Program-made: the position numbers and the translations under genes
Shown: one piece after another, positions 1,236-4,601 of the stretch
Position numbering within the stretch: position 1 is the first letter of the stretch
How the letters are laid out: each line of letters starts with the position of its first letter
Notes under the pieces: model-generated
The model's input: only the letters and a program-made list of their open reading frames with translations
Databases searched by the model: none
What the model was told of the DNA's origin: nothing
IMG/VR virus record: IMGVR_UViG_2545824644_000011
Span: 1 to 4,601 of that record
Length of the DNA stretch: 4,601 nt
DNA from: a virus
Taxonomy: Duplodnaviria; Heunggongvirae; Uroviricota; Caudoviricetes
Direction: 5' to 3' (one strand)

Positions 1236-3251
1236 ATGAGTACCACAACACGAAAATTTAAAACCATTATCACTGATACTGGTGCCAAAAAATTAGCTCA
1301 GGCTGCCGCGCCAGATGGTAATCCTGTCCGCCTGACTCATATGGCCGTGGGCGACGGTGGCGGCACGTTGCCCACACCAGACAGTAAGCAGACCCGTCTG
1401 GTGCATGAGGTGTGGCGACATACTGTTAATCGCGTCATCCTGGACGCAACACATCAGAACCGCATTATTGCGGAGCTGGTTATTCCTCCTGAAACGGGCG
1501 GATTCTGGATCCGGGAAATTGGTGTATTTGATGAGCACGGCGATTTGATCGCGGTGGGCAATACTGCCGAAAGTTACAAACCAACCGTTGCCGAAGGATC
1601 CGGACGTGCACAAACATTTCGCACCATTCTGACCGTATCCAGCACTGCCACCGTGGCGCTTACCGTGGATAACACCATGGTGATGGCCACAGTGGATTAC
1701 GTGGATGACAAACTGAAAGAGCATGAACAGTCACGACGTCACCCGGACGCCTCGCTGACCGCAAAAGGCTTTGTTCAACTCAGTAGCGCCACTAACAGCG
1801 TGTCTGAAACGCAGGCTGCAACGCCGAAAGCAGTAAAGGCCGCGTATGACCTTGCTAACGGGAAATATACTGCGCAGGATGCCACCACAGCGCGGAAAGG
1901 CCTTGTCCAGCTCAGTAGCGCCACCAACAGCACGTCTGAAGCACTGGCCGCAACACCGAAAGCGGTAAAGACAGCATATGACCTTGCTAACGGGAAATAT
2001 ACCGCTCAGGACGCTACGACAGCACAAAAAGGGATTGTCCAGCTAAGCAGCGCGACTAACAGCACATCTGAAACGCTTGCCGCGACACCGAAAGCAGTGA
2101 AAGCAGCTAATGACAATGCGAATGGTCGGGTACCTTCTGCCCGTAAGGTGAATGGTAAGGCGCTTTCAGCGGATATTACACTGACGCCGAAAGATATTGG
2201 TACGCTTAACTCAACAACTATGTCATTCAGCGGTGGTGCTGGTTGGTTCAAATTAGCAACGGTAACCATGCCGCAGGCGAGTTCTGTTGTTTCAATTACG
2301 TTGATTGGTGGCGCGGGATTTAACGTGGAGTCACCTCAACAGGCAGGTATATCTGAACTTGTTCTTCGTGCGGGAAATGGAAATCCAAAAGGTCTTACTG
2401 GTGCGTTATGGCGACGGACATCGGTTGGATTTACTAATTTTGCATGGGTGAATACATCCGGTGATACCTATGATGTTTATGTTGAAATAGGTAATTACGC
2501 CACAGGTGTTAATATTCAATGGGATTATACCAGTAACGCCAGCGTAACGATTCATACTTCACCAGCATATTCTGCTAATAAGCCGGAAGGATTAACGGAC
2601 GGTTCTGTTTATTCGCTGTATATTTCGCCTCATGAACTTTATCCGGTTGGCGCACCGATCCCTTGGCCATCAGATACCGTTCCGTCTGGTTATGCCCTGA
2701 TGCAGGGGCAGACTTTTGACAAATCTGCATACCCGAAACTTGCAGCCGCTTATCCGTCAGGCGTGATCCCTGATATGCGTAGCTGGACGATTAAGGGCAA
2801 GCCCGCCAGTGGTCGTGCAGTATTGTCTCAGGAACAGGACGGCATTAAATCGCACACCCACAGCGCCAGTGCATCCAGTACGGATTTGGGGACGAAAACC
2901 ACATCGTCGTTTGATTACGGTACCAAGACGTCCAGTTCATTTAACCATGGCACTAAAACCACGAATAGCGCCGGGGATCATTCACACAATATTCCTGTTG
3001 GCAACACTGGTGCTGGTAATGGTGTTTCGGCTGGTTATAACTCAGGGCTTGGCACTGGAAAAACAAGTAACGCAGGGGGGCACTCTCACACAGTAAATAT
3101 TGGCGCACACACTCATACGGTAGGAATTGGCGCACACACACACTCCGTTGCGATAGGTTCACACGGGCATACCATCACCGTTAACGCTACGGGTAACGCA
3201 GAAAACACCGTAAAAAACATCGCATTTAACTATATTGTGAGGCTTGCATGA
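1236..3251 (+). CDS. Tail fibre protein, 671 aa, mosaic: P2 gpH-like N-terminal domain, three tandem 44-aa repeats, divergent central domain, lambda Stf-like C-terminal tip with His-x-His motifs
   Basis: ATG at 1236 lies 2 nt after the gpI stop. The N-terminus (...[27 protein letters not shown]...[48 protein letters not shown]...) is gpH-like. The C-terminus (...[74 protein letters not shown]...[31 protein letters not shown]) matches the lambda side tail fibre terminus. Confidence 0.9.
1764..2132 (+). repeat. In-frame tandem repeat inside the tail-fibre gene: three units of 132 bp (44 aa), starting at 1764, 1896 and 2028; the third unit is partial and degenerate
   Basis: The units encode KG[F/L/I]VQLSSATNS[V/T]SE[T/A][Q/L]AATPKAVK[A/T][17 protein letters not shown][R/Q]. 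Amino-acid identity between units is high, while the DNA differs at many synonymous positions. Confidence 0.85.
3075..3180 (+). other. His-x-His motif array in the tail-fibre tip ([36 protein letters not shown]), presumed metal-coordinating
   Basis: The translation of 3075..3180 shows four consecutive HxH units at a period of about 9-10 aa. Similar HxH repeats occur in tail-fibre distal domains (T4 gp37 and lambda Stf family). At DNA level an imperfect direct repeat of about 27 bp, ...TTGGCGCACACAC..., lies at about 3099-3147. Confidence 0.7.
3238..3242 (+). promoter_or_regulatory. Shine-Dalgarno-like element (TGAGG) for the macrodomain ORF, embedded in the 3' end of the tail-fibre gene
   Basis: TGAGG at 3238-3242 lies 5 nt upstream of ATG 3248. 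The ATG overlaps the tail-fibre stop TGA (3249-3251), giving an ATGA coupling arrangement. Confidence 0.5.
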
Positions 3252-4150
3252 TTACGCTCATTCTTTCTGCACCAGTAACAGAAATGGCTGAAGCATTTAA
3301 GCAGGTATTTGCAAATGCAGATAGTGTGAATATTGTCGGAAAGCCATTTGAAACAATCAGAGAATTTGACTGCATGGTAAGTGCGGCAAATAGTTTCGGC
3401 CTGATGGATGGTGGCGTTGATGCCGCCATTACCGCATTCTTCGGTACTCAGTTACAGTCCCGCGTTCAGAATCATATTCTTCGTGAATATCTCGGCGAAC
3501 AGCCTGTAGGTTCTGCATTTGTCATTGAAACGGGGCATAATCATCACCCCTGGCTGGTACATGCGCCAACAATGCGTGTTCCGTTGACAATTGACGGAAC
3601 AGACGCTGTATATAACGCAACCTGGGCCGCTCTGCTTGCCATCTTTCAGCACAATAAAAACGCAACGACAGACATGAAAATAAAAACAGTGGTATTCCCT
3701 GCAATGGGGGCCGGATGTGGTCAGGTGCCGTTTGAAAGTGTTGCCCGACAGATGAAGCAGGCATGGGATAACTTTAATAAAAAAACAGAATCAATTAACT
3801 GGGAATACGCACAATCTCGCCAGTCGGCAGTATTTGGCACATATGCATACTGTCCGGGTAATTCCGTTTGCCGTTATGCGGATACTAAATATATTGGATG
3901 CGGCGATTATCGGACGTGTTGCTCTCGTTCCGGGCAAGTCTGTATTAACCCTGAACATCAGGCTGATGATGTACTGATACAACATCAGGCTAATAACCGT
4001 TTTCGCCATGGTTCGCATATACACCGGATTAATCCAGAAAATCCCGTAGGTAATGTCACCTCTGGCGCACATAGCCACGGAAGTAGCATCGTTATTGGTA
4101 CTCCTACCCATACGCTCAATAAACAATATTCTGTCTCTGATATTAAGTAG
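3248..4150 (+). CDS. Macrodomain-containing protein, 300 aa: N-terminal macro (ADP-ribose binding/processing) domain of about 180 aa plus a C-terminal extension of about 120 aa carrying a 6-Cys cluster and His-x-His fibre-tip-like motifs
   Basis: The single long ORF starts by overlapping the tail-fibre stop. Residues 43-61 (nt 3374-3430), [19 protein letters not shown], match the macrodomain signature (V/I)NAAN-x-L-x-GGGV-x-x-AI. Residues 148-161 (nt 3689-3730), [14 protein letters not shown], match the second signature (IAFPAISTGVYG-like). The C-terminal part has C202, C208, C218, C224, C225 and C232, then [36 protein letters not shown]. Confidence 0.7.
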
Positions 4151-4158: not shown

Positions 4159-4601
4159 ATGGATTTCAGAATGAGTGAACAATCACGGACCATAAAAATT
4201 TATAACCTGCTGGCCGGAACTAATGAATTTATTGGGGAAGGTGATGCATACATTCCACCTCATACAGGTCTGCCTGCAAACAGTACCGATATTGCACCAC
4301 CAGATATTCCGGCTGGCTTCGTGGCTGTTTTCAACAGTGATGAGGCATCGTGGCATCTCGTTGAAGACCATCGGGGTAAAACTGTTTATGACGTGGCATC
4401 AGGGGACGCGTTATTTATTTCTGAACTCGGTCCGTTACCGGAAAATGTTACCTGGTTGTCGCCGGATGGAGAGTGTCAGAAGTGGAACGGCACATCCTGG
4501 GTGAAAGATGCAGAAGCAGAAAAACTGTTTCGGGTAAGGGAGGCAGAAGAAACAAAAAACAGCCTGATGCAGGTAGCCAGTGAGCATATTGCGCCACTTC
4601 A
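4159..4601 (+). CDS. tfa: Tail fibre assembly protein (lambda Tfa family), 3'-partial, runs off the window end
   Basis: Hand translation from ATG 4159 gives [147 protein letters not shown] with no stop before the window end. This is nearly identical to lambda Tfa as I recall it. It is missing from the ORF track because it has no stop inside the window. Confidence 0.9.

Follow-up and report, generated by a model that had tools for sequence, protein, structure and literature searches.

The tail fibre repeat catalogued as Pfam family PF03406 has units of about 42-44 residues, occurs in tail fibres and has no confidently known fold (PMC8078820). We analysed such a repeat in a 4601-base stretch of DNA, called the window below, whose units show no essential difference from the family. 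An HMM built from the window's own units was used to count the motif in named fibres. Lambda Stf and Mu S each hold one copy, P2 gpH and the fibre of Citrobacter phage Shae hold two, the P88 and Chuche fibres hold three, and the fibre of Escherichia coli O55:H7 DEC5B holds four. The S protein of P7/P1 holds one copy and one degenerate copy. In the named fibres that we counted, the array always consists of (n-1) full units followed by a truncated core. Sharing of the motif among P2, lambda, Mu and P1 fibres was reportedly already in the literature of 1992-1994, in a 1992 paper on the P2 fibre and in work by Sandmeier from 1994.

Among described fibres, P2 gpH (NP_046775) resembles the window in its gene order (J, I, H, tfa/G) and has the same N-terminal domain. 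Its repeat begins at the same place (aa 174, compared with aa 177 in the window) and comprises one full unit and then a truncated core, which gives two units where the window has three. Beyond the last core, gpH has TVMDETNKK and a distal part of the P2/lambda type; in the window, AANDNANGR and a tip like that of T4 gp37 follow. A macro-domain gene between H and tfa is a further feature of the window that sets it apart from P2. An earlier note on this DNA had described a single-copy motif common to P2 gpH and lambda Stf. The two proteins do share the motif, but it is present twice in gpH.

Lambda Stf (orf-401) has a single core at aa 361-394, the first 25 residues of which are identical to unit 3 of the window, and Mu S has a single core, KGLVQLTSATDSPSETLAATAKAVKIAMDNANAR. 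In both proteins the core stands just before an exchangeable distal part. They differ from the window in having one copy, other N-terminal domains and other virion types, and the distal part of the Mu fibre is swapped by Gin inversion. The collagen-like fibres of Stx phages (EPclB; PMC3368898) contain the same core as an internal module of a trimeric fibre, but here one copy is flanked by collagen Gly-X-Y repeats and there is no tandem array.

The motif is widespread. Among 1.84 billion representative proteins, 3959 carry it at E <= 1e-3. Some of these have up to 12 tandem 44-aa units, and in others the core recurs with a 56-aa period. In the Pseudomonas jumbo phage Ettore the period is 63 aa, and in Stx-phage fibres the core is a single copy between collagen repeats, known as the 'Pf2' domain (PMC3368898). 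This recurrence with other linkers (56-aa and 63-aa periods, collagen) speaks for a modular core.

Results

The repeat lies in the fibre gene of a P2-type tail module

Open reading frames and Pfam matches identify the window as the fibre end of the tail module of a P2-like prophage. Its features are as follows; the strand is given for the fibre gene, its parts and tfa.

38-223: C-terminus of IS21 IstB
303-710: last 135 codons of baseplate gene J (Baseplate_J C-terminal fragment, Pfam)
670-1233: gene I (Tail_P2_I, Pfam E 1e-50)
1236-3251, plus strand: tail-fibre gene of the P2 gpH type, 671 aa, which carries the repeat (ORF and Pfam)
1236-1763, plus strand: N-terminal domain upstream of the array (PF12571 over aa 6-153)
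1764-1895, plus strand: repeat unit 1, 44 aa (aa 177-220), HMM match
1896-2027, plus strand: repeat unit 2, 44 aa (aa 221-264), HMM match
2028-2129, plus strand: repeat unit 3, truncated to a 34-aa core (aa 265-298), HMM match to profile positions 1-34
1845-1870, with a second copy at 1977-2002, plus strand: 26-nt exact match between units 1 and 2, TATGACCTTGCTAACGGGAAATATAC
2130-2606, plus strand: post-array shaft segment of the distal module, common to fibres of the DEC5B, L010 and Chuche type
2607-3248, plus strand: receptor-binding tip, homologue of the T4 gp37 needle domain (PDB 2XGF, E 2.1e-80, aa 458-671)
3248-4150: macro-domain ORF, 300 aa, between H and tfa
4159-4601, plus strand: 5' part of the tail-fibre assembly chaperone gene tfa, an open frame of 147 codons that leaves the window

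Gene J is reduced to its last 135 codons and adjoins the C-terminus of IS21 IstB, which indicates that the prophage is truncated. Public E. coli assemblies show the same arrangement, including the IS21 junction. An intact version of this prophage is on record, and the full P2-type context is seen in locus L092. The order J, I, H, tfa of P2-type tail modules is preserved in the window, with the macro-domain gene as the one departure. In contigs identical to the window, the full tfa gene codes for 192 aa with Caudo_TAP domains. The best match among complete E. coli genomes is O55:H7 DEC5B, with 96% identity over 90% of the window, and the exact 671-aa fibre protein occurs in 119 blocks of public assemblies.

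The fibre ORF matches PF12571 at its N-terminus (E 6e-54), PF03406 three times (E 2.4e-60) and the Collar domain PF07484, which lies in the tip at aa 472-518. Pfam names PF12571 'Phage tail-collar fibre protein, N-terminal'. This name and the position of the gene after J and I suggest that the N-terminal domain attaches the fibre to the baseplate. The post-array segment at 2130-2606 is absent from P88-type and P2-type fibres. The last 214 residues, which form the tip, contain His-x-His repeats as in 2XGF, with HTHS, HSH and HTH motifs aligned. At the DNA level, side-tail-fibre genes of other, mostly lambda-like, phages match the tip with 89-94% identity.

Together, the three units score 200.3 bits against PF03406 (Phage_fiber_2, 'Phage tail fibre repeat'), for which the gathering cut-off is 22. 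The ORF that holds them carries PF12571 and a gp37-like tip, lies between gene I and tfa, and repeats with a tandem period of 44 aa. The repeat is a PF03406 tandem array in a gpH-type fibre of a P2-like prophage.

The units are old copies whose peptide is conserved

Tandem Repeats Finder reported a period of 132 with 2.7 copies, 81% matches and a score of 453 at 1763-2114. When 1700-2200 was compared with itself, the best 200-nt stretch was 83% identical at an offset of 132. At other offsets between 20 and 259, self-identity did not exceed 39.5% and had a median of 28.5%. All three units are in frame with the ORF at 1236-3251. The third matches over its first 33-34 residues only and is followed by unrelated sequence, and the array at 1764-2129 consists of three cores of about 33 aa and two linkers of 11 aa. 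The description of the array as a triplicated 132-bp in-frame repeat thus holds for the period and the frame, but the third copy is a 34-aa core and not a full 44-aa unit. The earlier note had ended the array at 2132, within one codon of the end of the truncated core.

The DNA of units 1 and 2 is 83% identical, and either of them is 73-76% identical to the core of unit 3. Of the 132 nucleotides compared between units 1 and 2, 23 differ, and 16 of these lie at third codon positions. By the Nei-Gojobori method, dS between these two units is 0.79, dN is 0.074 and dN/dS is 0.09. Comparisons of unit 1 or 2 with unit 3 over 33 codons gave dS values of 1.5-2.5, which are near saturation, and dN/dS of 0.04-0.06. 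Overall, dN/dS ranged from 0.04 to 0.17 and dS from 0.5 to 2.5, and the excess of synonymous changes between units had a binomial P of about 4e-6 to 8e-6. The longest exact run common to units 1 and 2 is TATGACCTTGCTAACGGGAAATATAC, at unit positions 82-107. These results confirm that the copies have diverged at synonymous sites and that the divergence is old. The unit peptide is under strong purifying selection, and the DNA copies that encode it are old and diverged.

Copy number varies among close relatives

We compared copy number across 80 IMG/VR loci that were picked solely by their fibre N-terminal domain. This domain is 96-99% identical to that of the window in 66 of the 80 loci and 59-65% identical in the other 14. 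Arrays were fully contained in 73 loci. Copy number among these close relatives varies from one to eight: one unit was found in 9 of the 73 arrays, two units in 21, three in 29, four in 12, seven in 1 and eight in 1. Three copies, as in the window, is the commonest state.

The arrays can also be sorted by the distal part that follows them. Those ahead of the gp37-like AANDNANGR class mostly have 3-4 units and reach 7, those ahead of the P2/lambda-type AVMDETNKK class have 1-3, and those ahead of the AYDNAEKR class have 1-4, with 8 found once. One reading of the array is that its length is adaptive. The PF03406 unit count would then match the fibre's reach or flexibility to the distal module that it carries and to how thick the surface layer of the host is. 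We regard this reading as unlikely. It draws on the variation of copy number by distal class, a pattern that shared ancestry explains equally well.

Arrays change by whole units, and the window appears to have lost one

Clustering of the 99-nt cores at 96% identity defined unit types, and each array was then spelled out as a string of these types. The window reads ABC. Other strings are AMBC for the IMG/VR loci L010, L015 and L016, KLBC for DEC5B, AFG for P88 and AG for Shae. We also found QQRC beside QRC, ALXYXYZ, and TUVW beside efUgggVW. Every unit of the window has a much closer counterpart in some other phage than among its own neighbours. In DNA, the unit 1 core matches unit 1 of P88 and Shae with 100% identity. 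Unit 2 is 100% identical to the third unit of the four-unit DEC5B array, and unit 3 is 100% identical to the last (fourth) unit of the same array. The unit 3 type always stands last and is always followed by AANDNANGR. Copies with 100% identical DNA occur in the 7- and 8-unit arrays (XYXY and ggg), which points to recent duplications there. The unit-type strings and the identical copies indicate that whole units are gained and lost as these arrays evolve, and that arrays exchange sequence with one another.

The closest relatives of the window are the DEC5B fibre (WP_000108497.1) and the fibres of L010, L015 and L016. DEC5B is 96% identical to the window in DNA over the module, and L010 is 98.5% identical downstream of the proposed deletion described below. 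All four share with the window the same distal part, macro gene and tfa, and their last two units are identical or nearly so. They differ in having four units (KLBC or AMBC), so that the window, with ABC, is short of exactly one 132-bp unit.

The two ends of unit 1 have different counterparts in other arrays. Relatives carry its 5' 81 nt solely in their first unit (18 arrays). Exact matches to its 3' 51 nt were confined to the second unit of four-unit arrays (6 arrays) and did not occur in the first unit of any other array. Sequence resembling unit 1 gives way to sequence resembling unit 2 at unit positions 82-86, within TATGACCTTGCTAACGGGAAATATAC. Unit 1 is thus a chimera that joins the head of unit 1 to the tail of unit 2 of a four-unit relative; compared with an L010-type AMBC array, it is a recombinant of A and M. 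This structure points to a past in-register loss of 132 bp from the array, and TATGACCTTGCTAACGGGAAATATAC is the likely crossover zone of that deletion. In its 5' part, unit M has about 10 differences from each of the two window units that would flank it, so AMBC cannot have been produced by a duplication within ABC. The economical reading is that a four-unit array lost exactly 132 bp through in-register recombination or slippage.

Neighbouring units are no more diverged than random pairs

The earlier note had proposed that the array is stabilised against recombinational collapse. In one form of this idea, selection for the synonymous divergence, or some other means of stabilisation, keeps homologous recombination from collapsing a useful three-copy array. 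Copies with identical DNA are indeed rare: of 101 pairs of full units within arrays, only 5 reach 99% identity or more, all of them in the 7- and 8-unit arrays. Many assemblies also stably carry the exact 671-aa protein. The scarcity of identical neighbours fits their fast loss, however, and would be expected if such pairs collapse quickly, which requires no selection on synonymous sites. We compared adjacent full units with random cross-array pairs and found median identities of 86.4% and 85.6%, respectively. A one-sided test of whether neighbours are less alike gave P = 0.94, and no selection for neighbour divergence was seen among full units. Because neighbours are no more diverged than random unit pairs, the claim of stabilisation is unsupported.

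The arrays also keep substrates for recombination. A length of about 30 nt is roughly the minimum for RecA-dependent exchange. Adjacent units retain in-register exact runs with a median of 30 nt, and the corresponding run in the window is 26 nt. Rad52-like phage recombinases act on short, diverged homology, and phage recombinases were found to recombine 12%-diverged sequence only about 100-fold less than identical sequence (PMC3945230). Close relatives are separated by gains and losses of whole units, and unit 1 of the window itself appears to bear the scar of an in-register 132-bp deletion. A collapse by 132 bp thus seems already to have taken place in this array, its relatives hold 1-8 copies, neighbours show no extra divergence, and a 26-nt run is still shared. 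These observations contradict the proposed stabilisation, and we consider selection against collapse quite unlikely.

The array ends where unrelated distal modules begin

Three unrelated distal modules start directly after ...AATPKAVK in the IMG/VR loci, behind N-terminal domains that are 96-99% identical. These distal classes begin with AANDNANGR (the class of the window, with a gp37-like tip), A/TVMDETNKK (the P2, lambda and P88 type) and xAYDNAEKRLQK. Each end of the array stays with its flank: the truncated last unit goes with the distal module and the first unit with the N-terminal domain. Type A first units occur together with last units from each of the three distal classes. Megablast finds homology to P88-like phages up to 2112 of the window, a position within the last core. 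Across these comparisons, the array is the last conserved stretch before unrelated distal modules.

An engineered fibre provides a second line of evidence. Brödel et al. described a functional lambda-P2 chimera in which residues 1-393 of lambda Stf were joined to P2 gpH from residue 251 onward (PMC11338833). In our motif HMM coordinates, this joint (Stf 393 / gpH 251) is the C-terminal edge of the motif in both proteins. The end of homology in the array and the working chimera joined at the motif edge support the suggestion that the motif is a recombination linker between fibre halves. Comparative patterns and one engineered chimera of other fibres thus suggest that the array may act as a junction. 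We also considered P2-S16 pseudotyping as evidence on the motif and set it aside; its fusion points lie elsewhere and have no bearing on the motif (PMC9594776).

De Paepe et al. ascribed old fibre-gene exchanges to site-specific invertases and not to homologous recombination (PMC3945230), which counts against a junction of the homologous kind. We also considered whether the repeat acts as DNA or RNA: it might supply crossover sites to a Gin/Cin-type invertase, serve as a regulatory element or hold a gene on the opposite strand. In Mu, the boundary of the invertible G segment lies about 60 nt after the single motif, and P88-like relatives of the window have an invertase and an invertible distal segment. 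The parallel with the Mu G segment is not general, however, because the inverted-repeat pair that brackets the alternative distal segment of P88 lies about 120 codons beyond the array. Neither the window nor the contigs identical to it contain an invertase gene, and the AAACCNNGGTTT dyad (Din-type crossover core) has no match beyond chance in the window. The locus therefore lacks both marks of a Gin/Cin/Min invertible segment. Minus-strand and alternative-frame ORFs within the repeat gave no family matches, and a search of Rfam gave no matches. The dN/dS values of 0.04-0.17 place the constraint on the peptide. Since the peptide is constrained and we found no invertase, crossover core, Rfam match or family in another frame, a function of the repeat at the DNA or RNA level is highly improbable.

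Structural predictions and the role of the units

We modelled the fibre with AF2. A single-sequence prediction of aa 1-355 had a pLDDT of 36 and was unusable. A prediction of aa 165-312 from a 35-row alignment had a pLDDT of 51.8, which is low, and only its secondary-structure pattern is usable. In this low-confidence model, all three units are predicted to form two short strands (around VQL and AAT) and then a helix of 12-14 residues, and the linkers are the parts with the lowest confidence. The recurrence of this pattern in each unit agrees with a modular core. A Foldseek search of the aa 165-312 model against the PDB gave no match at E <= 0.001 and none to Mu S. A search with the unit profile found the motif only in the Mu S entries of the PDB (5YVQ, 9KI1 and 8JU3), at residues 117-150. 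In rotary-shadowing EM of a collagen-like Stx-phage fibre, the authors read a globular internal domain that holds Pf2 (PMC3368898). By analogy, a globular domain of this kind would fit a node in the fibre as well as a stretch of shaft.

We considered whether the units are modules with a specific activity, such as nucleation or registration of trimerisation, docking of Tfa or weak binding to surface glycans, with copy number tuning that activity. The core is extremely conserved across unrelated fibres, including those of lambda, Mu, P1/P7, P2, Stx phages and a Pseudomonas jumbo phage. In Stx-phage fibres it is flanked by collagen triple-helix segments, a position that would suit a registration node (PMC3368898). 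Copy number, on the other hand, is free to vary between 1 and 8 behind the same N-terminal domain and before the same distal modules, which is easier to reconcile with additive structural units, and we found no experimental or structural support for a specific activity of the core. We consider such an activity distinctly unlikely.

Discussion

We favour the explanation that the repeat is a PF03406 array placed between a conserved N-terminal domain and a distal part with a gp37-like tip, in which the units serve both as additive modules and as a patch for swapping. We judge this explanation as a whole to be probable. In this model, PF03406 modules would be autonomous, additive building blocks of a trimeric fibre, and each extra unit would add a node or length to the proximal shaft. 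The additivity of units is suggested by the free variation of copy number between fixed flanks. Lengthening of the shaft by extra units, which the earlier note had proposed, is plausible. The conserved core, in both DNA and peptide, could at the same time provide a patch of homology through which distal host-range cassettes are swapped between phages.

The repeat belongs to a curated Pfam family, its copy number is ordinary and the exact protein is present in public databases, including many E. coli assemblies. It is therefore already known and carries little weight as a discovery. A by-product of the analysis is the finding that such arrays change through whole-unit, in-register recombination, which has left a clear scar in the window. 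A second is that the last core ends at the natural seam between the conserved proximal part of the fibre and the swappable parts that determine host range, a seam that engineers have already used with success. These findings may be of modest use for fibre engineering and for reading prophage mosaics, in which the arrays can be treated as strings of interchangeable unit types.

Expansion of the fibre repeat

The 132-bp repeat of the fibre gene also occurs in longer arrays. We found seven units in the fibre gene of IMG/VR 2579778952_000011, where DNA-identical units include a 264-bp duplication of the unit pair XY, and eight units in that of IMG/VR 2609459857_000006, where the DNA-identical units form a triple "g". 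These arrays are recent expansions of the same repeat as that in the window. Nearly all of the best database matches (P0001-P0120) are labelled "partial" and stop inside the fibre gene or shortly past it. This repeat or mosaic region is probably a place where assemblies of short reads tend to break off, and copy-number counts based on draft genomes could be biased by such breaks.

Mosaic structure downstream of the repeats

The fibre tip and the reading frame that follows it were annotated as follows.

2607-3248, + strand: fibre C-terminal tip, 214 aa, homologous to the needle tip of T4 gp37 (2XGF)
3085-3139: 27-bp tandem repeat detected by TRF
3248-4150, + strand: macro-domain ORF, 300 aa, matching Pfam Macro and phrog_2613

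The T4 gp37 needle tip is a close homologue of the C-terminal 214 aa (E = 2e-80). The tip contains His-x-His repeats, which account for the 27-bp tandem repeat. The DNA of the tip and of the tail-fibre assembly chaperone gene tfa is 89-94% identical to side-tail-fibre genes of other, mostly lambda-like, phages, and we therefore place a second mosaic boundary near 2640.

The macro-domain ORF lies between the fibre gene and tfa and starts at an ATG that shares bases with the stop codon of the fibre gene (ATGA). The Pfam Macro match covers aa 44-169 (E = 8.5e-19), and the phrog_2613 match (E = 1e-145) is annotated "unknown function". Some close relatives (H8-H10) lack this ORF and carry tfa directly 3' of the fibre gene. 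The ORF thus has the look of an accessory gene that was inserted here.

Truncation of the prophage by IS21

38-223: C-terminus of IS21 IstB
303-710: baseplate gene J, final 135 codons only, after the IstB C-terminus

An IS21 insertion truncates the prophage, which is presumably defective. GCA_002464205.1 has the same junction between IS21 and gene J. In GCA_014178705.1 the prophage is intact, and its fibre is identical to that of the window.

The repeat core in other lineages

The ~33-aa core of the repeat recurs with other linkers in the jumbo Pseudomonas phage Ettore and among the database proteins P0121-P0270. Its period is 63 aa in ETTORE_0477 (aa 711-869) and 56 aa, with a linker that contains HTHPW, in enterobacterial fibres. 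Giant proteins, 2-3 thousand residues long, contain numerous cores; for P0152, the search reported 20 stretches, whereas a recount gave 11. Because the linkers between cores are lineage-specific, their sequences suggest that core arrays expanded separately in different lineages.
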